64,000 nucleotides of DNA, taken from positions 85,336 through 149,335 of the forward strand of contig JAODND010000089.1 of NCBI GenBank assembly GCA_025465465.1, written 5' to 3'. The DNA is from Frankiales bacterium (GTDB lineage Bacteria > Actinomycetota > Actinomycetes > Mycobacteriales > SCTD01). The first letter of the stretch is position 1, and the number at the start of each line of letters is the position of its first letter. A program made the position numbers and the translations under genes. A model generated the notes under the pieces. The model had not been told where the DNA came from, searched no databases, and was given only the letters and a program-made list of their open reading frames with translations. Shown piece after piece: positions 7,839-60,180 of the stretch.

Positions 7839-8984
7839 ATGCGGGATACGGGGGTTGTCATCGCCGGAGTCGGATTGTCCGAGTGCGGCCGCGTCGACGG
7901 TATGACTCCGTTTGCGCTGCATCAGCAGGCGGCCAGCCGGGCACTCGCGGACGCGGGTCTGAGCCACGCCGATGTTGACGGCTTTGCGTCCACCGGGCTG
8001 GGGGTGCTGGCGCCGGTCGAGCTCGCCGAGTACCTCGGCCTGCGGCCGACGTGGGTCGACTCGACCGGTGTCGGCGGCAGCGCCTGGGAGGTCATGCTCG
8101 AGCACGCGGTCGACGCAGTGCGTGCCGGCACCGCTCACAACGTGCTGCTGGTCTACGCGGCGACGGCGCGTGCGGATCTGAAGAACAGGCTCCGGACCGC
8201 GAACCTGCAGTTGTCGTCGCGCGGCCCCAGCGCCTTCGACGTCCCGTTCGGTCACACCCTGATCGCGAAGTACGCGATGGTGGCGCGCCGGCACATGCAC
8301 GAGTTCGGCACGACGATCGAGCAGTTGGCCAACATCGCGGTGGATACGCGCTACAACGCAGGCCTCAACCCGGACGCGTTCTACCGCGACGCGATCACGG
8401 TCGAGGACGTGGCTGCCGCGACCATGGTCGCTGACCCGTTCACGAAGCTGCACTGCTGCATCCGCAGCGACGGCGGCGGCGCTGTCCTGGTGACGTCTGC
8501 CGAGCGTGGCCGCGACCTGCCCTCCCGGCCGGTCCGGGTGCTGAGCTGTGCGTCTGCCAGCGGCACCACGACGATGAGCCAGTGGGACGACCTGACCGTG
8601 TCGCCCGCCGCTGCTTCAGGTGCGCTCGCGTTCCGGCGAGCCGACATCACCCCGGCAGACGTGGACGTGTGCCAGTTCTACGACTCCTTCACGAGCACTG
8701 TCCTTCTCACGTTCGAGGCGCTCGGCTTCTGCGAACGAGGCGAGGCAGGCGCCTTCCTCGAGGGCGGCACGATGCGGGTGGGAGGTGCCCTGCCGACCAA
8801 CACCGATGGCGGCGGGCTGTCGGCGTGCCACCCAGGCATGCGCGGCATCTTCCTGCTCGTCGAGGCTGTCCGGCAGCTGCGCGAGCAGGCCGGCGCCCGG
8901 CAGGTGGCGGGCGCGAAGGTCGCCTGTGTGAACGGCACCGGGGGCTGGTTCTCGTCCGCCTCGACCTCGTTGCTCGCGGTCTGA
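7839..8984 (+). CDS. Thiolase-fold protein (SCP2/Ltp-like, no N-terminal catalytic Cys)
   Basis: VIAGVG, DGGGAVLV, FYDSFT, NTDGGGLSACHPG; STGVGGSA where classical thiolases have Cys. Confidence 0.88.
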   Translation: MRDTGVVIAGVGLSECGRVDGMTPFALHQQAASRALADAGLSHADVDGFASTGLGVLAPVELAEYLGLRPTWVDSTGVGGSAWEVMLEHAVDAVRAGTAHNVLLVYAATARADLKNRLRTANLQLSSRGPSAFDVPFGHTLIAKYAMVARRHMHEFGTTIEQLANIAVDTRYNAGLNPDAFYRDAITVEDVAAATMVADPFTKLHCCIRSDGGGAVLVTSAERGRDLPSRPVRVLSCASASGTTTMSQWDDLTVSPAAASGALAFRRADITPADVDVCQFYDSFTSTVLLTFEALGFCERGEAGAFLEGGTMRVGGALPTNTDGGGLSACHPGMRGIFLLVEAVRQLREQAGARQVAGAKVACVNGTGGWFSSASTSLLAV

Positions 8985-10668: not shown

Positions 10669-11889
10669 TCAGCCGAGAGCGCCGGCCTGCTTCAGGGCGG
10701 CGACCCGAGCATCGTCGTAGCCGAGCAGGTCGCCGAGCACCTCGCGGGCGTGCTGGCCCGGCGTCGGCGCGTGCGCGGGGACGGGCAGGAGCTCGCCGTC
10801 GATGCGCACGGGGAACGGGATCTGCTCGGCACCCAGCAGCTCGGCCGGGATCCACGGCAGCCGCGCCTGGAACTGGGGGTCCAAGCCGATCTGCTCTGCG
10901 CTGTTCACGGGCGACAGCGGGACGTTTGCCTCAAGGCCGAGCCGGACCCACTCCTCGTTGGTGCGGGTCACGAACAGCGCGACGAGCTCCTTGCGCAGCG
11001 CGGTGTTGCCGCGGGCGTGATCGGCGTACTCGGCCCCGGGATGGGCCTCGAAGAGCTCGTCGCGACCTACGGCCGAGCAGAAGGACTTCCAGAACTTCCG
11101 TTCGCTCGCCTGGAACAGGACGTGTCCGTCAGCGCTGGCGTACATCTGGTAGCGCACGCTGTCGCGCATGCCGCCCGTGCCTGGCGCCCTGCGCTCATAG
11201 CCGTCAGTGGGATTGCCTGTGACCTCGTCCTCGGGTCGCTCGTAGGCCTTCCATGTCTCGATCGCCATCCAGTCGGTCGCCGCAGCGGCGTCGGACTGGG
11301 CGACGTCCAGGTGGCAGCCCTGCCCGGTGTCGCGGGCGCGGAGCACCGCGGCCAGCAAGGTGAGTGCGCCGTAGAGGGGGCCGGTGTGGATGCCGACGGA
11401 GCGGTGCGCAGGCATCGTGGGCAGCCCGTCGACGAGCTCGGGCCCGACGACGCCGGCCCACGCGTCGTAGGCCACGCCGTGCGTCGGCAGGTCACGGTAG
11501 GGGCCGCTGCCCCCGAAGCCGCTGATGGAGGCGAGCACGATGCGGGGGTTGATCTGCTGGAGCCGGGACAGGCCGAGCCCGCGGCGTTCGAGAGCTCCCG
11601 GCCGCATGGCCTCGACCACGGCGTCGGCATGCGAGACGAGGTCGAGGAAGACCTCGACGCCCTCCTCTGTCCGCAGGTCCAGGACCACGCTGCGCTTGCC
11701 TCGTCCGAGGTGGAGGTGCAGCAAGGACACCCCGTCGACGAACGGCCACACCATCTTGCGTATGTAGTCGCCGCCCGGCGGCTCGACCTTCACCACGTCC
11801 GCGCCCAGGTCGGCAAGATGCGTCGTCAAGGCCCCCGGTCCCAGCATGCTGACGTCGACGATGCGCAGTCCGTCGAGCAGGCCTGGCAC
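10669..11889 (-). CDS. Class III CoA-transferase-like protein (catalytic Asp apparently absent)
   Basis: LDGLRIVDVS, LADLGADVVKVE, GKRSVVLDLR, DAVVEAMRPG; GTG abuts upstream TAG. Confidence 0.88.
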   Translation of the reverse strand: MPGLLDGLRIVDVSMLGPGALTTHLADLGADVVKVEPPGGDYIRKMVWPFVDGVSLLHLHLGRGKRSVVLDLRTEEGVEVFLDLVSHADAVVEAMRPGALERRGLGLSRLQQINPRIVLASISGFGGSGPYRDLPTHGVAYDAWAGVVGPELVDGLPTMPAHRSVGIHTGPLYGALTLLAAVLRARDTGQGCHLDVAQSDAAAATDWMAIETWKAYERPEDEVTGNPTDGYERRAPGTGGMRDSVRYQMYASADGHVLFQASERKFWKSFCSAVGRDELFEAHPGAEYADHARGNTALRKELVALFVTRTNEEWVRLGLEANVPLSPVNSAEQIGLDPQFQARLPWIPAELLGAEQIPFPVRIDGELLPVPAHAPTPGQHAREVLGDLLGYDDARVAALKQAGALG

Positions 11890-13119
11890 CTAGAGCTCCA
11901 GGCCGAACAGCTTGATGGCGTTGCCCCGGGCGATCTTGTCGATCTGGTCCTGGGGGAGATGCCCGAACTGCAGGGCCGCGGCCTCCCGGGTGTCGGGCCA
12001 GGTGCTGTCCTGGTGCGGGTAGTCGGTCTCGAACAGGATGTTGTCCACGCCGACCTTGTCGAGCAGGTCGATGCCGACCGCATCCTTGAAGAAGCAGCTG
12101 TAGACCTGCCGGTAGTAGTAGGTCGAGGGCAGCTCCGGACAGTTGTCCTTGCCGTGCGCCCAGCCGCGGTGGGTGTGCCACACATCGTCTGCCCGCTCGA
12201 GCACGTAAGGGATCCAGCCGATCTGCGCCTCCGCATACATGAGCTTCAGCGTCGGGAAGCGGTGCAGGACCCCACTGAACAGGAAGTCGACGAGGCTGGC
12301 GGCGCTGTTGCCGAAGATGATCGTGCCCGCGACGGCCTCGGGTGCGTCGTCGGATGTCTGGGGCGTCTTCGTGCCGGAGCCGATGTGCATGCAGACGACG
12401 GTGCGGGTCTCCGCGCACGCGGCGAAGAACGGGTCCCAGTAACGGCTGTGGATGCTGGGCAGCCCCAGGTAGGCCGGGATCTCGCTGAACGCGACCGCAC
12501 GGACCCCGCGTGCCGCGTTGCGTCGCACCTCCCGCACCGCGAGCTCGACGTCCCAGAGCGGGACGATGCACAACGGCAGCAGGCGTCCACCGCTGTCGCC
12601 GCACCACTCCTCGACCATCCAGTCGTTGTAGGCCTGCACGGACATCAGCGACAGCTCCTTGTCCTTGCCCCACAGGAACATCTGACCGCAGAAGCGCGGG
12701 AAGTTCGGGAAGCACAGCTGTGCCTGCACGCCGTTGAGGTCCATGTCGGCGAGCCGCTCGACCGTCTGATAGCAGCCGGAACGCATGTTCTCGTAGGTCA
12801 CGCCTTGCATGCCGACCTCGTCGGCGGGGAAGCCGGCGGCGGCGATGTAGCGCTTCAGGCTGACCTGCCTGTCCTCGTAGAACCACCAGGCGACGTCGGG
12901 GCCGTCGGTCCCAGGCGCCTCGACGTACGACGAGCCGACGAGCTTCACGTCGCCGCCAGGGGCGTAGACGATCCTCGGGCCGACGTCGCGAAACCTTGCT
13001 GGGAGCCGGCTCGACCAGACGTCCCTCGGCTCGACGACGTGGGCGTCGACGTCGATGATCGGCGGGATCCGCAGCAATCGCGACTCCAGCACGTCCTGCT
13101 CGACAACCTGCTCCGACAT
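11890..13119 (-). CDS. Amidohydrolase family protein (Amidohydro_2-like)
   Basis: IDVDAHVVEP, MHIGSG, FETDYPHQDS; GGAGG RBS before ATG 13119. Confidence 0.9.
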   Translation of the reverse strand: MSEQVVEQDVLESRLLRIPPIIDVDAHVVEPRDVWSSRLPARFRDVGPRIVYAPGGDVKLVGSSYVEAPGTDGPDVAWWFYEDRQVSLKRYIAAAGFPADEVGMQGVTYENMRSGCYQTVERLADMDLNGVQAQLCFPNFPRFCGQMFLWGKDKELSLMSVQAYNDWMVEEWCGDSGGRLLPLCIVPLWDVELAVREVRRNAARGVRAVAFSEIPAYLGLPSIHSRYWDPFFAACAETRTVVCMHIGSGTKTPQTSDDAPEAVAGTIIFGNSAASLVDFLFSGVLHRFPTLKLMYAEAQIGWIPYVLERADDVWHTHRGWAHGKDNCPELPSTYYYRQVYSCFFKDAVGIDLLDKVGVDNILFETDYPHQDSTWPDTREAAALQFGHLPQDQIDKIARGNAIKLFGLEL

Positions 13120-13162
13120 ACGTCCTCCAGGGGCCTGGCCCGGCACGATGTTTCGCGCGCGA

Positions 13163-13182
13163 CTCGTACATACGATATACAA
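13163..13182. promoter_or_regulatory. Putative GntR/FadR operator (motif 1)
   Basis: CTCGTACATACGATATACAA in divergent spacer. Confidence 0.65.
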
Positions 13183-13199
13183 AAAGCGGGAGGCTAGCC

Positions 13200-14387
13200 A
13201 TGGAACTGAAAGACAGCGAGGCCGACGCCCAGTTCCGCAAGGAACTGCGCGTCTGGCTTGCTGATGTCGTCCCGAGCCTCCCGTCCCCTCCCGACCCGCG
13301 TGACAGGTGGGCCTCGCGCCGGTTCGACGAGACCTGGCAGCGGCTCCAGTACGACGCGGGCTATGCCGGAATCGCGTGGCCGAAAGCGCACGGCGGACGT
13401 GGTGCGACGCCAACCGAGCATCTGATCTTCCTGGAGGAGCTGGCCCGCGCCGACGCCCCGGATGTCGGCTGCGGCTTCGTCGGCCAGGGGCACGCCGGTC
13501 CGACGCTGATCGCGGAGGGCAGCGATGAGCAGCGCGCCGAGCACCTCCCGGGCATCCTCGACGGGACGAAGGTGTGGTGCCAGGGGTTCTCGGAGCCCGG
13601 CGCAGGCAGCGACCTCGCCGGTCTGCGCACCCGCGCCGTCCGAGACGGCGACGAGTACGTCGTGACGGGACAGAAGATCTGGACGTCGTTCGCGCAGGTC
13701 GCTGACTACTGCGAGCTGCTCGTCAGGACCGACCCTGATGCCCCGAAGCACAAGGGCATCACCTGGCTGATCCTGCCCATGAGCAGTCCAGGCATCGAGG
13801 TGCGGGAGCTGGTCACTCTGCAGGGCGAGGCGGAGTTCGCCGAGACCTACCTGGACGAGGTGCGCGTGCCTGTCGCCAACCGGGTGGGGGAGGAGAACGA
13901 CGGCTGGCGCGTCGCGATGGTGACGCTCAGCTTCGAGCGCGGCACCGCATTCGTTCCCGAGATGCTGGAGTCCCTGCGACTGGTCGAGGACCTCGCTCGG
14001 CTCAGCGAGCGGCTTCGCCGTGGCCGTGGCCCAGCGTGGGAGGACGCCGGCATCCGGCGCGAGCTCGGCACCGTCGCCGCGGAGCTCGACGCCCTCTGGG
14101 CCCTGACGAAGAGAAACGTCACCCGCGGCGAGAGCGGCACCGTGCCCATCGTCGGGGGCTCCTCGTTCAAGCTGTACTACGCCGATGTTCGTCACCGGCT
14201 CGGTGACCTCGCGATGCGGGTGCTCGACCAGGCCGGCCTCGTGCTGGAGGACCTGCCCGACCTCACCGTTGGCCGGCACGTCGAGGGTTCGCTGCACGCG
14301 TTCGCCGTGAGCATCGCCGCGGGCAGCAGCCAGGTGCAGCGCAACATTCTCGCTGAGCGTGTGCTCGGCCTGCCGAAGGAGCGCTGA
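13200..14387 (+). CDS. Acyl-CoA dehydrogenase (catalytic-type subunit of putative alpha2beta2 pair)
   Basis: WCQGFSEPGAGSDL, GQKIWTS, TLSFERG, NILAERVLGLP; GGAGG RBS. Confidence 0.93.
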   Translation: MELKDSEADAQFRKELRVWLADVVPSLPSPPDPRDRWASRRFDETWQRLQYDAGYAGIAWPKAHGGRGATPTEHLIFLEELARADAPDVGCGFVGQGHAGPTLIAEGSDEQRAEHLPGILDGTKVWCQGFSEPGAGSDLAGLRTRAVRDGDEYVVTGQKIWTSFAQVADYCELLVRTDPDAPKHKGITWLILPMSSPGIEVRELVTLQGEAEFAETYLDEVRVPVANRVGEENDGWRVAMVTLSFERGTAFVPEMLESLRLVEDLARLSERLRRGRGPAWEDAGIRRELGTVAAELDALWALTKRNVTRGESGTVPIVGGSSFKLYYADVRHRLGDLAMRVLDQAGLVLEDLPDLTVGRHVEGSLHAFAVSIAAGSSQVQRNILAERVLGLPKER

Positions 14388-14388
14388 G

Positions 14389-15360
14389 GTGCACTTCGAC
14401 CTCGACGCCGGCCAGCGTGAGCTCCAGTCGGCCCTCACGCGGTTCTGCCACGACCTCTTCCCGGTAGCGGTCGCCCGCGAGTCGGGCGAGAAGGGTCTGG
14501 ACAGGGGGCTGTGGCGCAGGCTTGCCGACATGGGGGTCTTCGCGCTGGCACTCCCTGACAGCGACGGCGGCGCGGGCCTGACCGTCGTCGAGCAGGTGCT
14601 CGCCTTCGAGGTTCTCGGCGCGGGCCTCGTGCCCGGTCCCATCGTCGGGAGCACCCTGGCCGCCGGACTGGTCGAGGGTGCGAGCACAGGTGACGTGGTG
14701 GTCGCGGCCGTGACAGCCACGGACGGCCCGGTGCTCGTACCCGGGCTCCGTGACGCTGACTGGCTGCTCGTGCTGCACGACGACCGGGTGGAGCTCGTCG
14801 AGGCGGCAGGCATCCACGGTGACCTGGTTTCACGGCCACTGGATCCGACCAGTCCACTGACGCGCCTCGACGCGATTCCCTCCGGCGAGGTGCTCCTCCT
14901 CGGGGCGGCATCCGACGCGTTGTGCCGCACCGCGTCGCTGCTCACGTCCGCCGCCCTGCTCGGGATCGCGCGACGGACCACCGAGCTCGCGACCGACTAC
15001 GCGAAGACCCGCGAGCAGTACGGCCGGACGATCGGGTCCTTCCAGGCGATAAAGCACATGCTCGCCGACATGCTCGCGTTGGCCGAGGTCGCCAGCGCCT
15101 CCGTCCACGCGGCCGGTGTGATGCTGGCGGACACGAGTGCCGAAGCGGAGCGCGCCGTCGCCGGTGCCCGGGTGCTCGCCGGAAAGGCCGCGCTGCACAA
15201 CGCTGCCACCAACGTCCAGATCCACGGTGGCATGGGCTTCACCTGGGAGCTGGACGCCCACCTGTACCTCAAACGTGCGCGGCTGCTGTCGGTCAGCCAC
15301 GGAAACGTGGACGCCGCGGCCGAGACGGTCGCCACCCAGTTGCGAGGAGCGCTGCAGTGA
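14389..15360 (+). CDS. Acyl-CoA dehydrogenase, short partner subunit
   Basis: YAKTREQYGRTIGSFQAIKH, IHGGMGFTWE; lacks the SEPxAGSD motif; 323 aa; GTG 1 nt after upstream TGA. Confidence 0.9.
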   Translation: MHFDLDAGQRELQSALTRFCHDLFPVAVARESGEKGLDRGLWRRLADMGVFALALPDSDGGAGLTVVEQVLAFEVLGAGLVPGPIVGSTLAAGLVEGASTGDVVVAAVTATDGPVLVPGLRDADWLLVLHDDRVELVEAAGIHGDLVSRPLDPTSPLTRLDAIPSGEVLLLGAASDALCRTASLLTSAALLGIARRTTELATDYAKTREQYGRTIGSFQAIKHMLADMLALAEVASASVHAAGVMLADTSAEAERAVAGARVLAGKAALHNAATNVQIHGGMGFTWELDAHLYLKRARLLSVSHGNVDAAAETVATQLRGALQ

Positions 15361-16207: not shown

Positions 16208-18331
16208 ATGACGCTGCCTCTCGACGTGAGTGGGCGCCCGCTCGCTCTCCGGGAGCTGGACTGGGACCGGCTGTATCGGCCACGCACCGTGGCCGTCATC
16301 GGTGCCACCGACACGGCCGGACCGCCGCGCAACCAGTGGGTGCAGGTCCGGGACCGTCTCGGCGCCCGCGGCGCGACCGTCGTGCCGGTGCACCCGAAGA
16401 AGACGGACGTCCTGGGGTCGCGGGCCTATCCGAGCGTGCTCGACGTGCCTGGTGACGTCGATGTCGCCGTGATCCTCGTCCGGGACCCGCTGCCGGCGCT
16501 GCAGGACTGCCTCGAGAAGGGAGTCCTGTTCGCGTTCGTGTTCTCGGCGGGCTTCAGCGAGGTCGGCACCGAGGAGGGAAGGTCCGCAGAGGCCCGCCTG
16601 AAGCAGATCGCCTCCGGCGCGATGCGGGTGATCGGGCCGAACACCAACCTCAACTTCTACGAGCCCTGGCGCCAGGACCTTCCTGGCCGCAAGCTCGCCG
16701 TGGTCACCCAGTCCGGCTTCCAGGGACGTCCGTTGGTGCAGGGTGAGGTCCTCGGCATTCCGGTGCACACCTGGGCGACTGTCGGCAACGAGGCCGACAT
16801 CGAATGGTCCGACATGGTCGCGCATCTGGTCTCCGAACCCGACGTCGGAGCCGTGGCCAGCTATGTCGAGGGCTTCGTCGACGGCCGCACCTTCATGCTG
16901 GCTGCCGACGCGGCAGCGCGCGCCGGCAAGCCGATCGTCTGCATCAAGGTCGGCCGGTCGGAGGAGGGCCGCGTCATGGCGCAGGCCCACACCGGCCACC
17001 TGACCGGATCCGATGCGGTGCACGACGCCGTCTTCGAGCAGTTCGGCGTCCTGCGAGTGGATGACATCGACGAGGTCGTCGAGATCGCCGGCATGTTCTG
17101 CCACCTCCGGGAGCTCCCGGCGTCTGGGCGCGTCGCCGTCTACGCCATGTCGGGAGGGACGGCCTCGCACGTCGCCGACCTGTGCGGCGTGGCTGGCGTA
17201 CCCCTTCCGACGTTCGCACCCGAGACGGTCGCGAAGCTCGAGGACCTGCTGCCGTGGTACCTCCGTAAGGACAACCCGGTCGACAGCGGCGGTGTCATCA
17301 CGGCGACGCCTCAGAACATCGAGGTGCTGCGCGCGATGCTCGCCGACCCTTCCGTCGACGTCCTGTTCGCACCGATCACCGGTGTGTTCCCGGGCATGAG
17401 CGACGCGCTCGCCCGCGACCTCATCACGTTGCACCAGGAGGGCGGCAAGCCGGTCGTGGCCTGCTGGAACTCGCCACTCCGCGACAACGACGCCTACCGG
17501 GCGCTGTGCGCCGCCGGGGTGCCGCTGTTCCACTCGATGTCCGCGTCGGTGAAGGGCCTGAAGGCGCTGGGGGACTGGAGCGCGTTCACGGCGGGGTACC
17601 GCAGTCCGTTCGACGCGGCACCGCGCGCAGCGTCGCCCGCGCGCGACGCCGTCCGAGGTCTGCTCGGCCGCGGTGCGCTCAACGAGGTCGACAGCAAGCG
17701 GCTCCTTGCTGCCTACGACATCCCCACAGTGATCGAGCACGTGGCGTTGTCGGAGGAGGAGGCGGTGCGTGCAGCGCAGGCTCTTGGACTGCCGGTCGTT
17801 CTCAAGGTGCTCTCCGCTGACATCGCGCACAAGTCCGATCTCGGGCTCGTGGTGGTGGGGGTGCAGACGGAGCAGGATGTCCGCGACACCTACCGGTCGC
17901 TGGTCGAGCGGGCGGCGGCCGCCGCTCCGGAGGCCCGGGTGGACGGCGTCGTCGTGCAGGCCATGGTCTCGGGGTCAGTCGCCGAGGCCATCGTGGGCCT
18001 GTCGCACCAGCACCCCTTCGGGCCGACCCTGCTCGTCGGCCTGGGTGGCGTCCTGGCTGAGGTTTATGCCGACGTCGCGCACCTGGTGCCGCCGTTTGAC
18101 GAGGACCGGGTACGCGCCGTTGTCGGCGGTCTGCGCGCCGCGAAGCTGCTGGAGGGCGTCCGTGGTCGTCCTGCCGGTGACATCGACGCCCTCGTCCGGG
18201 TGGTGATGAGCCTGCAGCGCCTCGCGCTGGAAATCGGTGACGAGCTGCTGGAGATCGACATCAACCCGCTGCTCGTGCTGCCCGAGGGTCAGGGCGTCGT
18301 CGCCGTCGACGCGCTCGTGATCGGTCACTGA
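16208..18331 (+). CDS. ADP-forming acyl-CoA synthetase (acetate--CoA ligase family, fused alpha/beta)
   Basis: VAVIGA CoA-binding domain, GPN, AHTG phospho-His motif, NPVD, PVVLK, HKSDLG, IDINPL ATP-grasp; AGGAGG RBS. Confidence 0.92.
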   Translation: MTLPLDVSGRPLALRELDWDRLYRPRTVAVIGATDTAGPPRNQWVQVRDRLGARGATVVPVHPKKTDVLGSRAYPSVLDVPGDVDVAVILVRDPLPALQDCLEKGVLFAFVFSAGFSEVGTEEGRSAEARLKQIASGAMRVIGPNTNLNFYEPWRQDLPGRKLAVVTQSGFQGRPLVQGEVLGIPVHTWATVGNEADIEWSDMVAHLVSEPDVGAVASYVEGFVDGRTFMLAADAAARAGKPIVCIKVGRSEEGRVMAQAHTGHLTGSDAVHDAVFEQFGVLRVDDIDEVVEIAGMFCHLRELPASGRVAVYAMSGGTASHVADLCGVAGVPLPTFAPETVAKLEDLLPWYLRKDNPVDSGGVITATPQNIEVLRAMLADPSVDVLFAPITGVFPGMSDALARDLITLHQEGGKPVVACWNSPLRDNDAYRALCAAGVPLFHSMSASVKGLKALGDWSAFTAGYRSPFDAAPRAASPARDAVRGLLGRGALNEVDSKRLLAAYDIPTVIEHVALSEEEAVRAAQALGLPVVLKVLSADIAHKSDLGLVVVGVQTEQDVRDTYRSLVERAAAAAPEARVDGVVVQAMVSGSVAEAIVGLSHQHPFGPTLLVGLGGVLAEVYADVAHLVPPFDEDRVRAVVGGLRAAKLLEGVRGRPAGDIDALVRVVMSLQRLALEIGDELLEIDINPLLVLPEGQGVVAVDALVIGH

Positions 18332-19673: not shown

Positions 19674-20108
19674 TCATGTGGACGGGCGGAAGAAGGGAAG
19701 CGCGAGCGGCCCGCCGAGGCCGATGGCCTCGCCGGCTTCCGGGTCCTGGTGCCAGACGAGCTCCAGTGACTGACCGACAACAAGCTGTTCGGGGGCACAC
19801 TCGACGACGTTCGTCATCAGGCGCGGCCCCTCGGCGAGGTCCACCAGGGCAGCCACATACGGCACCCGGTCACGGAACGGCGGCAGGTCGTTGCTGCGCA
19901 CGACCGACCAGGTGTAGAGAGTCGCCCGACCGCTGGCGTTCTCCCAGGTGACGTGCTGAGACCAGCAGGCCGGGCAGAAGGGCCGCGGGTAGAGGAAGGC
20001 GGTCGAGCACGCCTCGCAGCGCTGGATCAGCAGCCTGCCCTCCCGCGCAGCGTCCCACCACGGCCGGTGCTCGTCCTCGATCGTCGGCAGGTCGAAACGC
20101 ACGCTCAC
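19674..20108 (-). CDS. DUF35 Zn-ribbon/OB-fold protein
   Basis: WWDAAREGRLLIQRCEAC...PRPFCPAC, GRATLYTW, DLAEGPRLMTN; GTGA overlap. Confidence 0.92.
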   Translation of the reverse strand: MSVRFDLPTIEDEHRPWWDAAREGRLLIQRCEACSTAFLYPRPFCPACWSQHVTWENASGRATLYTWSVVRSNDLPPFRDRVPYVAALVDLAEGPRLMTNVVECAPEQLVVGQSLELVWHQDPEAGEAIGLGGPLALPFFRPST

Positions 20109-20524
20109 GGCCGCCGCCCGCCGACGCGGGCGGTGGCCTGCCCTTGCACCACGATGTTCCCGTCGCTGTCGACGAGCTGGCAGGAGACCTCCACCGTCCC
20201 GCTCGCCTCGTCTGCGCCGACTACGACAACCCGGGTCGACAGGGGGACGCCAGGCCAGACCTGCTTGGTGAAGCGCACGGCGAACCGGGTGAGGCAGTCC
20301 GGCCCCAGCCAGTCGGTGACCGCCGAGGCGAGGATGCCGGCGTTGAGCATCCCGGGGGCGAACACGCTGGGCATTCCCGCGGCCACTGCCTTCGTCTCGT
20401 CGTGGTGCATCGGGTTGAAGTCGCCAGAGACTCCGGCGTACCGGACGAAGTCGGTGCGGCTGAGCGCGATCTCTGTCGGCACCGCCTCGTCTCCGACCCG
20501 GACGGCTGGGCGGCTGGTCGGCAC
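20105..20524 (-). CDS. MaoC family dehydratase (R-hydratase)
   Basis: YAGVSGDFNPMHHD (D-x4-H dyad), APGM, VRFTKQVWPG. Confidence 0.9.
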   Translation of the reverse strand: MPTSRPAVRVGDEAVPTEIALSRTDFVRYAGVSGDFNPMHHDETKAVAAGMPSVFAPGMLNAGILASAVTDWLGPDCLTRFAVRFTKQVWPGVPLSTRVVVVGADEASGTVEVSCQLVDSDGNIVVQGQATARVGGRRP

Positions 20525-37503: not shown

Positions 37504-38231
37504 GTAACGACAAGGTCTACATCCACGAGTACATCGACATCACCAAGCAGGGCCGCGCGAAGTACATGCACCACATGACGGCCAACTGGAGCCCCCTGGC
37601 CCAGGAGCAACGAGGTCAGCTCTGCTACGGCGTGTGGGGCACGGTGGGGTCAACGGGCCGCTGGCCCCAGGTCGTGAACCTGTGGGAGGAGGACGGGTGG
37701 GACGGGCTGACCTCGTCGTTCGCCCACGAGCTCGCCGATCCCTCGCTGCAGGACCCGGCCCTGGCCACGTGGTGGGCGACCGCCGCTGACCTCCGCAGCG
37801 GCGGCGTGGACCGCATCCTCGTGCCACATCCCAGCACGCGGACCATCGAGGAGCTGTGTCGCGCGAGCACGACCTACGCCGCGTACGCCCACGAGATGCT
37901 GACGGTAGAGCCCGGCCGAGCCGACGAGTTTCTCGACCTGGCCGTGGACGGCGTCGGCGAGGCGTCGGACAGCGGGTGGGTGCTCATCGGGGCCTTCCGC
38001 ACCGCGATGCGCCATGACGAAGAGGCCCTGCTGCTGTGGGGAATCCCGGACTGGCCGAGCTGGGGCAAGGCTGAGCGGCGCATGGCGGAAAGGGCCGCGG
38101 ACGCGGTCCCTTCGGCAGCGCGAGAGCTGCTGCGGTCGCGCGAGCGGATCCTGCTCGTCGACGCACCGCTCTCGCCGTTGCGCACGCACCGCCAGCCGCA
38201 CCGTGAGGACCGCACCGGTTGGCAGGACTGA
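37500..38231 (+). CDS. NIPSNAP-like (dimeric alpha-beta barrel) protein
   Basis: Two repeated beta-alpha halves (YIHEYID...GVWGTVG..WPQVVNLWE; YAHEML...GAF...LLLW); resembles actinobacterial proteins I recall as NIPSNAP family; ATGA overlap. Confidence 0.6.
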   Translation: MSNDKVYIHEYIDITKQGRAKYMHHMTANWSPLAQEQRGQLCYGVWGTVGSTGRWPQVVNLWEEDGWDGLTSSFAHELADPSLQDPALATWWATAADLRSGGVDRILVPHPSTRTIEELCRASTTYAAYAHEMLTVEPGRADEFLDLAVDGVGEASDSGWVLIGAFRTAMRHDEEALLLWGIPDWPSWGKAERRMAERAADAVPSAARELLRSRERILLVDAPLSPLRTHRQPHREDRTGWQD

Positions 38232-38243
38232 CTCCTCGCTTCA

Positions 38244-39413
38244 TCAGTGCACCCCGAGGTCCGTCAGCTCGGCAAGCACCGCCTGGGTGTGCTGCCCCAG
38301 CGCCGGGACGGGCCCCGGGGCTACGTCCCAGGTGTCGGACTCTACGGGCGGGCGCAACGACAGGAAGCTTCCACCGGGGCACTCGGTGTCGCACCAACGG
38401 TCCCGCTCGACGAGCTGCGGGTGCTCCAGAACGTCGCTGACGGTGTTGAGGCGCGCATGTCCCAGGCCCGCCTGCTCCGCCGCCGCCCGTGCCTCGGCGA
38501 GGCTGTGCCGGCTCGTCCAGGCAGCGATCGCCTCGTCGAGTTCGGGGCGTCGCAGCACTCGGTCTGCGTTGCGTGCGTACCGCGGGTCCTCGGCCAGGTC
38601 GGCGCGGTCGAGGACCTGCTGGGCCAGCCGCCGCCACTCGCCGTCGTTGGTCGTGCCCAGCACGACCACCTGCCCGTCCTTGGTCCGGTAGGCCCCGTAG
38701 GGCGCCACCATCGGGCTGCTCAGGCCGTTCGGCACCGGGTCCTGGCCGCCGTAGCGAGCCTGGTTGAGCGCCCACCCGGCCCAGTCCGTCACGACGTCGA
38801 ACATGCCCACCGACAGCGCTGACCCGCTGCCGGTGCGCTCACGCTGCAGCAGGGCCGCGAGCACGGCCTGCGCGGCGTGCATGCCCGCGCCGATGTCGGC
38901 CAACGGGATACCCGGTTTGACCCGTGCGTCAGCGGTTCCGGTGAGAGCGCACGAGCCGGCTTCGGCTTGCACCAGCAGGTCATAGGCGCGGGCCGACTCC
39001 ATCGGTCCGCCGCGGCCGTAGCCGCTGACGTCGACGGCGATCAGTCGCGGGTACCGCATGAGAAGGCTGCGGGCGTCCAGCCCCAGCCGGGCCGCGGCAC
39101 CGGGAGCCAGGTTCTGCACCAGCACATCCGCAGTCGCGACGAGTTGCTCCAGGGCTTGCCGGCCGACGGGGTCCTTGAGGTCCAGCACGACGGACTCCTT
39201 GCCGCGGTTCGCCCAGGCGAAGTGCGCGGAGGTTCCGGCAACCACATCGTCGTAGCTGCGGGCGAAGTCCCCGCCCGCCTGGTTCTCGACCTTGATGACG
39301 CGCGCTCCGAGGTCCGCCAGCTGACGGGTGCAGTGCGGCCCTGAGACCGCCTGCTCGAGCCCGATCACCAGCACCCCGTCAAGGGGTGGCGAACCGCGAT
39401 CCTCAGGCGTCAT
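38244..39413 (-). CDS. Class III CoA-transferase (CaiB/BaiF family)
   Basis: LEQAVSGP, LADLGARVIKVE, NRGKES, YDLLVQA, PLADIGAG (Asp intact). Confidence 0.93.
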   Translation of the reverse strand: MTPEDRGSPPLDGVLVIGLEQAVSGPHCTRQLADLGARVIKVENQAGGDFARSYDDVVAGTSAHFAWANRGKESVVLDLKDPVGRQALEQLVATADVLVQNLAPGAAARLGLDARSLLMRYPRLIAVDVSGYGRGGPMESARAYDLLVQAEAGSCALTGTADARVKPGIPLADIGAGMHAAQAVLAALLQRERTGSGSALSVGMFDVVTDWAGWALNQARYGGQDPVPNGLSSPMVAPYGAYRTKDGQVVVLGTTNDGEWRRLAQQVLDRADLAEDPRYARNADRVLRRPELDEAIAAWTSRHSLAEARAAAEQAGLGHARLNTVSDVLEHPQLVERDRWCDTECPGGSFLSLRPPVESDTWDVAPGPVPALGQHTQAVLAELTDLGVH

Positions 39414-39431
39414 GTCGCGATCCCTCCCCAG

Positions 39432-39447
39432 TGTTGTATACAACATA
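39432..39447. promoter_or_regulatory. Putative GntR/FadR operator (motif 1, perfect palindrome)
   Basis: TGTTGTATACAACA perfect 14-bp palindrome in divergent spacer. Confidence 0.75.
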
Positions 39448-56537: not shown

Positions 56538-58886
56538 TCATGCTCGGGACCGGTCCAGGCACTCGGCGTCTACCGCGGCGCGCACATCCGCCGGGAGGCT
56601 GAGCTGCGCGAGCACCTCATCGGTGTGCGCGCCGAGTGCCGGCGCGAAGCCGATAGGCGCGGCGGGGGTCGCGGAGAAATCGAGGTACGGGCGCTGGAAC
56701 GCGGTGCTCGCGAAACGGGGCTTGGACACCTCCGCTGGGACGCCGGCCCGGTCCAGCACGCTCAGCCAGTCGGCGGCGCTCCGGCAGGAGAGAGCATCAC
56801 CGAGGCGCTTGCTGAGATCCTCGTCGTTGATCAGCCGGCTGGCCGGGTCCTCGAAGCGCGCGTCCGTGAGGAGGTCTTCGCAACCCAGGGTGGTGCAGAG
56901 CGCCGCCCAGTGCTGGGGGGTGACTGCGGCCAGGCAGAGCCAGCCGTCGGCTGTCTCGTAGAGGCGGTACAGCGCGGAGAAACCGAGCTGGAGGTCGTCG
57001 AGACGGGCGCGGTCAGGTCCGCTGCCGTCCGGGAACGCGAAGGTGCCGGACGATGTCGCGAGACAGGCTCCGAGGATGGAGCAGCCGACTTCCTGGCCCT
57101 CGCCCGTGCGCTGCCGGTCGTAGATCGCCGAGACGATCCCGATGGCCACGAGGAACCCGTTGCCGAGGTCTCCGAACGAGGTGCCGAAGAAGGGACGTCC
57201 GCCTCGTCCACATCCGCCGTCCTCCCACTCCTGGCCGGCGAGCGCCGATGCCGACTGGTCGGTGCCGGGAAGGTTGGCGGCGGACCGGGCACGGTCGAAC
57301 CCTCGGCTGGCTGCGTAGATGATGTCGGGCTTCAAGGCGCGCACGTCGTCGTAGCCGACGCCGATCCGCTCGGCGACGCCCCAGCGCATGTTGTGCGTGA
57401 CGACGTCGGCGGTCTTGACGAGCTCGTGGAAGGCGGCCAGTCCGTTGGGCTTGCCCAGGTTCAGCAGGACGCTGCGCTTGCCGCGGTTGGCCAGCTGTCC
57501 GATCCCCGTCGCGAGCCACGGCCCGTCCCAGGGTGCGTTGATCTTGATGACGTCTGCGCCCAGGTCGGCGAGCAGCGAGGAGCCGTAGGGCCCGGCGAGC
57601 GCGAGCCCGATGTCGAGAATCCGCACACCTTGCAGCGGCTTGCTGACGGGGGCGCGCTGGACACGGGCTGGAGATGCCTCATCGGTCGCTGCGGCCCGCG
57701 TCGCGGCGTCTCGCTGGACCAGCGCCGTGTGCTCGCCGCGACGGGGAGCCGGGCCCTGGACCGCGCCGGGCGAGCGGCTCAGCTCCGTGAGGACACCGAC
57801 GTGCCGGATGTCTCCCAGGTCGGGGTCCTGCACGCACACGACCAGACCCTCGTTGAGCAGCGTCGGGTCCGAGAGGGCCTGCTCGGGGCTGCGGACGATC
57901 TGGACGCCCTCGTGGACCCGCTCGGCCCAGCGTCGCCAGTCCTCAGCCGGAAACTTCTTGAACGCCTCTTGCATGAGCGGTAGGTAGTGGAACAAGACGA
58001 TGATGTTCTCAGGCTCCATGCCGATCCGGCTCGGATCCACCCGCCGGTGCGTGTACTCCGGGGCGGCTGCGTCCTCGAGGCGGTCGTGCTCGGCCGCCTG
58101 CACGACGGACAGCGGCTTGATCGGCCACTGGTGCACCCACCGGCCGTCCTGGCACTCGAACAGGCCTCGCGGTGCGCCGCGCAGGTTCATCCACGTCCCG
58201 CCCGTGGCACCGCCCGCTGGCAGCGCGGGAGCGAACGACGCACGCGGCAGCATCGACGCCTCGATGTGCTGCCCGGTGCCGGTTCGTTCACGGGCCACGA
58301 GTGCGGCAGCAATCGCGAGCGTCGCGGCGTAGAAGCCGTTGAGGCTCATCCAGGGTGAGGCGCTGAACAGCGGCCCGTCCGCGCGCGCCGCCTGCTCGGC
58401 GCCGTCGGGGATGGGCACGTCGGGCACACCGAGGTCTCCATGGGACATGATGCCGCCGCGTTGCGCCCATTGCGCACCGGTGCGGGCGGCGACGAGGGCT
58501 TCATAGCCAGGCCTGTCGCTGTGTTCGTTTCCCTCCCCATAGGCGGTGACGGAGCAGCTGACGAGCCGCGGGTTGAGGGCGCTCAGCTGTTGTGGGCCGA
58601 GTCCGAGCTGTTCCATGGCGCCCGGTCGCAGGGAGTCGATCAGTACGTCTGCGTTCCGGAGCAGCGCGAGCAGCACCTGACGGTCGGCGTCGTGGCGTAG
58701 ATCGAGGGTGGCGCTGCGCTTGCCGCGGTTCCAGACCCGGTACCCCGGGAGGTCAGCGAAGGGGTCATCCGGTCGCTCGACCCGGGTCACGCGCGCCCCC
58801 TGGTCGGACAGCATCATGCCGACCATGGGGCCGGCGACCCCTGACGTCAGCTCGAGCACTTCCAGGCCGCTGAAGGCACCTGTCAC
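56538..58886 (-). CDS. Tandem (two-domain) class III CoA-transferase
   Basis: Two repeats of the ..LE/LD...AGP...D.GA.V...NRGKRS motif; about 782 aa; GTG 58886. Confidence 0.9.
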   Translation of the reverse strand: MTGAFSGLEVLELTSGVAGPMVGMMLSDQGARVTRVERPDDPFADLPGYRVWNRGKRSATLDLRHDADRQVLLALLRNADVLIDSLRPGAMEQLGLGPQQLSALNPRLVSCSVTAYGEGNEHSDRPGYEALVAARTGAQWAQRGGIMSHGDLGVPDVPIPDGAEQAARADGPLFSASPWMSLNGFYAATLAIAAALVARERTGTGQHIEASMLPRASFAPALPAGGATGGTWMNLRGAPRGLFECQDGRWVHQWPIKPLSVVQAAEHDRLEDAAAPEYTHRRVDPSRIGMEPENIIVLFHYLPLMQEAFKKFPAEDWRRWAERVHEGVQIVRSPEQALSDPTLLNEGLVVCVQDPDLGDIRHVGVLTELSRSPGAVQGPAPRRGEHTALVQRDAATRAAATDEASPARVQRAPVSKPLQGVRILDIGLALAGPYGSSLLADLGADVIKINAPWDGPWLATGIGQLANRGKRSVLLNLGKPNGLAAFHELVKTADVVTHNMRWGVAERIGVGYDDVRALKPDIIYAASRGFDRARSAANLPGTDQSASALAGQEWEDGGCGRGGRPFFGTSFGDLGNGFLVAIGIVSAIYDRQRTGEGQEVGCSILGACLATSSGTFAFPDGSGPDRARLDDLQLGFSALYRLYETADGWLCLAAVTPQHWAALCTTLGCEDLLTDARFEDPASRLINDEDLSKRLGDALSCRSAADWLSVLDRAGVPAEVSKPRFASTAFQRPYLDFSATPAAPIGFAPALGAHTDEVLAQLSLPADVRAAVDAECLDRSRA

Positions 58887-58938
58887 GGCGGCCCCCCTTC
58901 CCCATCGAGGGTGGGACCAGTGGCACCGGGGCGGCGCC

Positions 58939-58954
58939 ACATCATGCATACAAT
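58939..58954. promoter_or_regulatory. Putative GntR/FadR operator (motif 1)
   Basis: ACATCATGCATACAAT upstream of tandem CoA-transferase. Confidence 0.68.
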
Positions 58955-58962
58955 ATGTTCGC

Positions 58963-60180
58963 TCATCTCGAAAGCGTTTGGGGGCGACCGGCACGGGGCG
59001 TGACGGACACCTGCAGCTGCTTCAACCCGCGAAGGTTGCCCTGCAGGGCGCGCACGGCGCCGCCTTCGACGAGCTCCCAGTCTGCGTAGCGCGTGAGGAA
59101 CTCCTCCAGCGCGACGCGGGTCTCCATCCGGGCGAGGGAGGAGCCCAAGCACATGTGCCGCCCGAGGCCGAAGCCGACGTGCCGCTCGAGCGGCCGGTCG
59201 AGGTCGTAGCGCTCCGGGTCCGGGAACTCCCGTGCGTCATGCAGCGCGGCGCCGGTCATGAGCAGCACCCGGTGGTCAGCGGGGATCGTGACGCCGTGCA
59301 GCGTCACCTCGCGGGTGGTCGTCCGGCCTTGGTAGTGGCTGGGCGGGTCCCAGCGGAGCGCCTCCTCGACCGCCTTGGGCAGCAGTCCTGGGTCGGCTAC
59401 CACCCGGGACCGCTCGTCCGGGTGCCACTTGAGGGCGATGATCGCGTTCGAGATGAGCTTGGCCACGGTCTCGTGGCCGGCGAACGCGAGCTCGAGAAAT
59501 CGGGTTCCCAGCTCGGCGTCGCCGGGCATGCGCGTGCCGCCGGCCCCGTCGTCGACCGGCGTCGTCATCAGCAGGCTGACGAGATCGCTTCCGGGTTGGC
59601 GGCGTCGCTGGGAGGCGAGTTCGACGAGCAGGACGGTGAGGCCCTTCGCGGCGACGGCCTCCTCCGGGCTCGCGTCGCGGCCGAGCCCGGACGCGACGAG
59701 TCCGGCGAGATGGACGATCTCGTCACGCAGTTCCAGCGGGATGTCCAGCAGCTCACTGATGACGTGCATCGGCAACCGGATGGCGAACTCATCGACGAAC
59801 TCGAATGTGTCGAGGCCGGCGAGTGGGTCGAGCAGCTCGGCGGCCGTCTGACGGATGAACGGTTCCAGCGCTGAGATGCGCCGAGGTGTGAACAACGGCG
59901 CCACGATCCTGCGGTGCAGGGTGTGCTCCGGCGGGTCCTTCACGATGAGCAGCGGCGTCGCGGCCTCGTCGCCCTCGATGGTGACGCCCTTGGCTGACGA
60001 GAAGGTCTCGTAGTCCAGATGCGCCTCCACGACATCGGCGTAGCGCGACAGCGCGTAGAACTCCAGCTGCTCGTTCCGGTAGACCGGCGCCTCGTCCCGC
60101 AGTCGGGCGTAGACGGGGAACGGGTTGTGGACGATCGCAGCGTCATAGGGGTCGTAGACGAGCTCAGGCCCAGCTCTCAC
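58963..60180 (-). CDS. Cytochrome P450
   Basis: DPPEHT..R, AGHET I-helix, EEALR ExxR, FGLGRHMCLG heme Cys; GAGGTG RBS before GTG 60180. Confidence 0.96.
   Translation of the reverse strand: MRAGPELVYDPYDAAIVHNPFPVYARLRDEAPVYRNEQLEFYALSRYADVVEAHLDYETFSSAKGVTIEGDEAATPLLIVKDPPEHTLHRRIVAPLFTPRRISALEPFIRQTAAELLDPLAGLDTFEFVDEFAIRLPMHVISELLDIPLELRDEIVHLAGLVASGLGRDASPEEAVAAKGLTVLLVELASQRRRQPGSDLVSLLMTTPVDDGAGGTRMPGDAELGTRFLELAFAGHETVAKLISNAIIALKWHPDERSRVVADPGLLPKAVEEALRWDPPSHYQGRTTTREVTLHGVTIPADHRVLLMTGAALHDAREFPDPERYDLDRPLERHVGFGLGRHMCLGSSLARMETRVALEEFLTRYADWELVEGGAVRALQGNLRGLKQLQVSVTPRAGRPQTLSR

Follow-up and report, generated by a model that had tools for sequence, protein, structure and literature searches.

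A 64,000-nucleotide stretch of the genome of a Frankiales bacterium (contig JAODND010000089.1, positions 85,336 to 149,335 of the forward strand; hereafter the window) carries, at 10669-11889, a gene for a protein that has the fold of family III CoA-transferases and lacks their catalytic aspartate. The protein belongs to a large, conserved and uncharacterised branch of the known family III fold, which is referred to here as the HG clade or the Asp-less clade. Judging from alignments, it cannot use the canonical aspartyl mixed-anhydride route, and the chances appear about even that it is an acyl-CoA enzyme with single-base or rebuilt acid-base chemistry in place of aspartyl-anhydride CoA transfer. 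Because the CoA-binding arginines and a His-Glu pair are kept, its function is probably a chemistry other than CoA transfer on acyl-CoA lipids. In databases, the orthologues are labelled 'CaiB/BaiF CoA transferase' or 'carnitine dehydratase', and this widespread annotation is misleading, since the proteins so labelled cannot function in the manner of family III transferases.

The Gene and Its Product

10669-11889, minus strand: Asp-less family III CoA-transferase-fold gene ('HG clade'), recognised by its open reading frame (ORF), Pfam PF02515, an AlphaFold2 (AF2) model and Foldseek

The gene is a single ORF with a GTG start at 11887-11889 and a TGA stop at 10669-10671, and it encodes 406 amino acids (aa). 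The Pfam domain CoA_transf_3 (PF02515) spans residues 5-380 and covers positions 1-365 of the 366 in the profile (E 7e-80). An AF2 monomer model built from an 84-sequence alignment reached a predicted local distance difference test score (pLDDT) of 95.7 and a predicted template modelling score (pTM) of 0.91, superseding an earlier, poor model from 24 close sequences (pLDDT 69.8, Foldseek template modelling (TM) score ~0.43). Foldseek matched the newer model to YfdE, SUGCT, Frc, BbsEF and alpha-methylacyl-CoA racemase (MCR) with TM scores of 0.7-0.84, the values for YfdE and SUGCT being 0.78-0.84 (E 7e-31) and that for Frc also ~0.8. The product is thus a complete family III protein and no fragment. 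Pseudogene status or decay was ruled out by the open frame, by a GC content at third codon positions of 0.91, which is the usual value for genuine genes of the window, and by 99 invariant positions among orthologues. NCBIfam has no specific model for the protein, every equivalog match being far under its cut-off, and a comparison with the ESM Atlas returned generic names only. Among the listed sequencing runs, those that contain the stretch are soil-metagenome DNA runs, with no RNA run.

Absence of the Catalytic Aspartate

The positions on which the argument depends, all on the minus strand and assigned by alignment, are the following.

11377-11409: codons A161-H162-R-S164-V-G166-I167-H168-T-G170-P171, the stretch where the Asp is expected
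11476-11481: codons His137-Gly138, in place of transferase Y-D/E and of MCR H126-D127
11464-11466: codon Asp142, a clade-specific acid where canonical transferases have Gln
11101-11106: codons Ser262-Glu263, Glu263 aligning with Glu241' of MCR (the prime marks the partner subunit)
11584-11673: codons Arg73, Arg96 and Arg102, mapped to MCR Lys62, Arg85 and Arg91

The protein was aligned with solved structures, with Frc, CaiB and YfdE of E. coli and with paralogues from the window and the rest of the genome, the MAFFT alignment also including 50%-identity representatives. In these alignments the catalytic Asp column falls within S164-V-G166-I167-H168-T-G170-P171, a stretch that has no acidic residue, and the site reads V-G-I where canonical enzymes have [LV]-[AG]-D. 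The same comparison with Frc, CaiB and MCR had been proposed as a check in a preliminary description of this gene, and it places no acid at that column. Which residue stands in for the Asp depends on the reference, the register being counted from the conserved Gly in the next helix: Frc Asp169 corresponds to Ile167, as the preliminary description had it, whereas Asp156 of M. tuberculosis MCR corresponds to Gly166. Phmmer alignments likewise place Gly166, within 'SVGIHTGP', opposite the catalytic Asp of Rv3272 and that of a Brucella CaiB/BaiF protein. In the comparators the catalytic Asp stands at the start of a long helix (Asp169 in Frc and CaiB, Asp175 in Rv3272), and in the AF2 model Gly166 opens helix 166-188.

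The earlier statement that no Asp lies nearby also stands, since neither Asp nor Glu occurs anywhere between residues 155 and 185; the only acidic residues in 151-185 are E151 and D154, both within the family-wide D-G hairpin. Two further transferase motifs are altered: the YD motif reads H137-G138, as had been noticed at first, and the small-domain G-N-D is S-E-R. The paralogues used as the original yardstick do carry the motifs attributed to them, PLAD in gene 38244-39446 and VADP in gene 27-1148. The latter (plus strand) matches only positions 5-201 of the 366-position CoA_transf_3 profile, after an unrelated N-terminal region of ~140 aa, and carries 'VADAVADP'; it represents a family III gene that has been truncated or rearranged.

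Conservation and Distribution of Orthologues

An orthologue set of 121 sequences was assembled from the query and the 120 best database clusters, which are 62-98% identical to it and whose sources include Frankia, Acidimicrobiia, Actinocorallia and Pseudofrankia. Invariant throughout are H137, G138, Y141, D142, W144, P160, H162, G166, G170, P171 and E263, and I167 is retained in 120; the motif at the Asp site, whose conservation in the form GIHxGP had been suggested for checking, is practically fixed in the set. Altogether 99 of the 406 positions are invariant, among them numerous polar residues near the predicted site. Orthologues from cultivable organisms include those of Aquihabitans sp. 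G128, Frankia and Streptomyces sp. NPDC002896. Position 161 is Glu in 105 of the sequences; because it is Ala in the query and in a second, unrelated lineage, Glu161 is dispensable, and its candidacy as an essential substitute acid was rejected.

In a one-genome-per-species collection, close relatives are encoded by no fewer than 568 stretches. Within its own genus the gene is patchy (2 of 18 searched genomes), and it was not found in 12 searched genomes from other families of the order. As far as the aligned orthologues can tell, loss of the Asp is a trait of a conserved family rather than a one-off or chance substitution.

Phylogeny of the Asp-Less Clade

Wider sampling used the 150 best 50%-identity cluster representatives, out of about 43,000 homologous representatives with E-values up to 0.001. 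About one third of them, 48 full-length single-domain proteins, form the Asp-less clade, whose states run H-G, mostly D142, G166-x and E263. Three types can be told apart by the residues at positions 137-138, the Asp site and position 263.

Canonical transferases: Y-D/E at 137-138; [AG]-D at the Asp site; N/Q at 263
Racemase-like sequences: H-D at 137-138; D at the Asp site; E at 263
Asp-less clade: H-G at 137-138; G-x at the Asp site; E at 263

Trees were built from 64 sequences and 392 columns, with all two-domain proteins and the frameshifted or partial sequences P0124, P0151, P0160, P0215, P0251, P0258 and P0267 omitted. In the FastTree result the Asp-less clade is monophyletic (Shimodaira-Hasegawa support 0.895) and joined with the H-D type at a support of 0.97-1.0, and IQ-TREE (LG+G4) gave ultrafast bootstrap values of 96 for the clade and 98 for the clade together with all H-D sequences. 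The trees show the clade to have arisen, at the level of sequence, on the His-type branch that includes the alpha-methylacyl-CoA racemases, and its grouping with racemase-like His-type sequences, apart from the Y-type transferases, is supported but not final.

In an 'HGxMM' subclade, represented by the plasmid loci L088 and L089 described below, a Glu or Asp lies 1-2 residues ahead of the Gly166 position, and it may be a re-acquired acidic residue.

Comparison with MCR

A genuine MCR orthologue, in which the His, the Asp and the Glu are intact, is encoded in the same genome (contig C109:2920-4026; L085:327-1427, minus strand; E 1e-149 to M. tuberculosis MCR). Published MCR residue numbers were transferred to the query through this sequence, and residue roles were taken from PMC12246613 and PMC10967716. 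The query itself is no MCR orthologue, its match to MCR having an E-value of 1e-23.

In MCR, His126 acts as the catalytic base and is paired with Glu241 of the other subunit at 2.6-2.8 Å, the backbone NH of Asp127 forms the oxyanion hole, and Asn152 holds the second base, Asp156 (PMC12246613, PMC10967716). His126 lies on helix 5, Asp156 on helix 6 and Glu241 at the start of helix 9 (PMC12246613). The first of these elements is preserved in the Asp-less proteins: H137 corresponds to His126 and is conserved in all 121 orthologues and in 46 of the 48 clade representatives, and E263 corresponds to Glu241', being Glu in every orthologue and in 41 of the 48 representatives, with Asp in 2 more. The remainder has changed, G138 replacing Asp127 with its backbone NH still available, H162 replacing Asn152 and G166 replacing the second base. 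In the AF2 model, H137, G166 and E263 each mark the beginning of a helix (138-144, 166-188 and 264-273, respectively), in agreement with the published MCR positions.

Residues for CoA binding are also kept. Lys62, Arg85 and Arg91 of MCR contact the CoA phosphates (PMC12246613); their counterparts are R73 (Arg in 118 of the 121 orthologues), R96 (in all 121) and R102 (Arg or Lys in all 121). Tyr130, which hydrogen-bonds CoA, and Ile16, which contacts it (PMC12246613, PMC10967716), correspond to Y141 and L16, both conserved.

The preliminary description was to be refuted if structural alignment placed an Asp or Glu at the active site, and this has come about in part. One such acid, Glu263 of the partner subunit, is predicted there by homology to MCR; it would serve as the hydrogen-bond partner of His137 and does not occupy the nucleophile position.

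Genomic Context

The genes around 10669-11889 that are most relevant to its possible role are listed below.

11890-13119, minus strand: homologue of amidohydrolase-related dinuclear oxygenases (ARO), 409 aa, identified by Pfam Amidohydro_2, solved relatives and motifs
11884-11901, minus strand: junction of this gene with 10669-11889, ...GGAGCTC TAG GTG..., read from the sequence
13200-15360: two-gene acyl-CoA dehydrogenase (ACAD) pair, divergent from the oxygenase gene
16208-18331: ADP-forming acyl-CoA synthetase
7839-8984: Ltp-like thiolase
19674-20524: ChsH2-type MaoC (hydratase) and OB-fold genes

The upstream neighbour had been taken for an amidohydrolase, a reading that has to be given up. 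Its product is closest, among solved structures, to the diterpenoid hydroxylase DitZ (8uyr; 9e-58, 199 bits) and to PtmU3 (6omp; 4e-36), and it contains DAH at 25-27 and DYPHQD at 366-371. The signatures of ARO enzymes are an N-terminal D-x-H and a C-terminal D-x-P-H-x-D/E (PMC13154177). Because DitZ and PtmU3 are its best relatives, both motifs are present and the residue inside the second is non-aromatic, 11890-13119 probably encodes a DitZ/PtmU3-type dinuclear oxygenase homologue. Its start is likely the ATG at 13117-13119 behind GGAGGA, the listed 507-aa ORF with a TTG start being probably over-extended; the TTG start would overlap the divergent ACAD gene, whereas the ATG start would not.

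As had been remarked, the start of the transferase-like gene abuts the upstream stop: no nucleotide separates the TAG of the oxygenase homologue from the GTG, GGAG lies 6-9 nt ahead of the latter, and a relative with 99% identity (G016) has the same junction. The two genes are predicted to be translationally coupled. As a feature of the family, this adjacency does not hold, for in the 63 other orthologue loci with room upstream no homologue of this oxygenase precedes the orthologue in the same orientation, and one lies anywhere in the flank in 9 of 80; the coupling is specific to this lineage. The oxygenase gene and the divergent ACAD pair are separated by 80 bp (13120-13199), where an AT-rich patch, TTTTTGTATATCGTATGTACGAG, stands amid GC-rich DNA. 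This spacer may serve as promoter or operator, although a search of 13090-13230 gave no inverted repeat.

Besides the genes listed above, the window has enoyl-CoA hydratases, short-chain dehydrogenases/reductases, ligases and a GntR regulator, and the neighbourhood as a whole, read from its gene content, suggests side-chain or ring beta-oxidation of bulky lipids, of which it bears the hallmarks. Homologues of acyl-CoA dehydrogenase, hydratase, ligase or thiolase are found within 7 kb in 49 of 80 orthologue loci. Similar clusters surround clade members on pDK3 of Rhodococcus sp. DK17 (L088:9001-10239) and on a plasmid of M. branderi (L089:8998-10257), where the neighbours are ACADs, MaoC hydratases, hydroxymethylglutaryl-CoA (HMG-CoA) lyase, cytochrome P450 and thiolase/OB-fold genes. 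In Actinomycetota the clade turns up repeatedly in large catabolic islands for lipids, terpenoids and steroids, among them those on plasmids of Rhodococcus and Mycobacterium.

A conserved operon partner was ruled out, the neighbours of 74 orthologues being highly variable. Several individual arrangements may be recorded. In a Mycobacteriales metagenome-assembled genome, a canonical 'GALGDIG' gene (L044:5784-6971, plus strand) stands right before the orthologue and runs in the same direction, and in L017 and L071 such a gene is a few kb away. A gene for a 235-aa protein without a Pfam or NCBIfam match immediately precedes the orthologue, in the same orientation, in 7 loci and is nearby in 12; in one of these (L057:6276-6983, plus strand) it overlaps the orthologue start codon by 4 bases. 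A homologue of this protein with 57% identity is encoded in the window at ~37506-38216 (plus strand), beside the canonical transferase gene 38244-39446.

Possible Reaction and Alternative Explanations

A fuller form of the favoured reading, to which we would give somewhat less than an even chance, adds the clade to the CoA-transferases and the 2-methylacyl-CoA racemases as a third functional class within the family III fold. As one joint claim, it holds that the members enolise acyl-CoA via His-Glu', with or without a second base that has moved elsewhere, for example His162; that in the breakdown of acids resembling terpenoids or steroids they thereby carry out a step not yet described, be it an epimerisation, an elimination, a decarboxylation or the isomerisation of a double bond or ring; and that in some lineages the enzyme is partnered with a diiron CoA-ester hydroxylase. 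On the favoured reading itself, the acyl-CoA would occupy the customary pocket between the two subunits of the dimer, where His137, with Glu263 of the other subunit polarising it, would abstract or supply the thioester's alpha-proton, and the backbone NH of Gly138 would provide the oxyanion hole. In this orthogroup, the second proton carrier might be His162, or water in the space freed by the change from Asp to Gly166. The result would be an epimerase-, isomerase- or eliminase-type reaction instead of CoA transfer, serving to degrade a bulky lipid acid, branched or polycyclic, in the manner of beta-oxidation and, in this lineage, linked by co-translation to the DitZ/PtmU3-type diiron hydroxylase homologue. 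Elimination has a precedent in MCR itself, which catalyses it with model substrates and whose colorimetric assay rests on it. The colorimetric MCR assay is described in section 2.3 of PMC10967716.

Several observations weigh against this reading. His162 and His168 are not conserved in the wider clade, and because they vary, any second base is not universal. Neither the methionine-rich surface of MCR (Met198, Met202, Met216) nor Asp127 is retained, raw similarity favours the transferases (1e-38 to YfdE against 1e-23 to MCR), and the geometry assigned to H137, E263', H162 and D142 comes from homology. Plain racemisation of 2-methylacyl-CoA is no obvious need because the genome already has a true MCR. 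In the IQ-TREE tree the racemase-like H-D set is paraphyletic, and tree sampling was confined to the 150 best representatives, which are skewed to relatives of the query, so that the placement beside the racemases is provisional. A literature search on Asp-less family III proteins found nothing relevant, nor any paper on this clade.

Of the two options in the preliminary description, a new chemistry or a non-catalytic partner subunit, the pair was well chosen and the former is favoured here; conserved pairing with a catalytic paralogue, which a partner subunit would require, was not found. The partner option would make the protein a pseudo-subunit that heterodimerises with an Asp-bearing family III paralogue to give one working site. 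Asp-less modules are indeed common in the family, as in its tandem proteins, and several canonical paralogues occur in the window, although none adjoins 10669-11889. Among 80 orthologue loci, 5 have a canonical Asp-bearing paralogue within 7 kb, which in one case (L044) is adjacent, directly upstream on the same strand. Because such a paralogue is nearby in so few of the loci, the other 75 being without one, and no adjacent or fused catalytic paralogue is conserved, the role of partner subunit becomes less likely. In addition, the His/Glu signature, which tandem Asp-less modules lack, has been kept across deep divergence, and this is hard to reconcile with a purely structural subunit; the invariant positions also include many polar residues near the predicted site. 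With the CoA arginines and the His-Glu' dyad retained, catalysis is therefore favoured over a dead partner, and we regard a pseudo-subunit as distinctly unlikely.

Low probability is also assigned to the possibility that the protein is still a CoA-transferase whose nucleophile has moved to Asp142, to Glu263' or, in most orthologues, to Glu161. Asp142 is the most suggestive candidate in that it is invariant and replaces the transferase Gln five residues past the active-site His/Tyr position, and both the kept CoA-binding arginines and a genomic context that needs CoA activation steps would suit such an enzyme. However, helix geometry would put Asp142 on a face next to that of H137 and Y141, not on it, Glu263 is by homology a second-shell partner of His137 away from the thioester carbon (PMC12246613), and Glu161 is subject to the replacement by Ala noted above. 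Moreover, the island already has ligases, one of them ADP-forming.

PtmU3 acts on a CoA-linked diterpenoid. It is nevertheless very unlikely that the protein is a non-catalytic acyl-CoA binder, whether a sensor or a carrier or chaperone that passes the CoA ester to the diiron oxygenase or other enzymes: the CoA-binding residues and the translational coupling to the DitZ/PtmU3-like gene would fit, but that coupling is limited to this lineage and the conserved His-Glu dyad is unnecessary for binding alone.

Knowing the reaction of the Asp-less clade would correct the annotation and add a step to catabolic pathways. The clade would also show how the scaffold of a two-base racemase or a nucleophilic transferase can be rebuilt after loss of its key carboxylate.

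Relationship to Known Systems

The upstream gene product shares with DitZ and PtmU3 the Amidohydro_2 barrel, both motifs and the non-aromatic residue inside the second motif that is characteristic of the diiron class, whereas at 199 bits it is a distant homologue of DitZ. IsoG of isoprene degraders retains the catalytic Asp.

Two-subunit or tandem-fused family III enzymes of the BbsEF type, which are ~800 aa long when fused, likewise contain an Asp-less module that is otherwise complete. Most of 60 tandem two-domain representatives have only one Asp-bearing module, as do both tandem proteins of this contig, an 818-aa protein in the window (56538-58994, minus strand) and a 915-aa open frame just upstream of the window (L087; contig C72:79500-86500), in which the catalytic Asp is confined to the C-terminal module. 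Their Asp-less modules are beside or fused to an Asp-bearing one and lack the His/Glu signature, whereas the 10669-11889 protein stands alone and has it.

The canonical enzymes Frc/YfdW, YfdE, CaiB, SUGCT and Rv3272 share with this protein the full-length PF02515 domain, a comparable length and the domain layout, and they provide its best sequence and fold matches. The query differs from them in the missing Asp nucleophile, in H-G for Y-D/E, in Asp142 for Gln and in S-E-R for G-N-D. With MCR/AMACR (PDB 1x74, 9i2t) it has in common the fold, the tree branch, the His, the partner Glu, the basic residues for the CoA phosphates and the counterpart of Tyr130, whereas Gly166, Gly138 and His162 take the places of Asp156, Asp127 and Asn152, and the query is ~45 residues longer.

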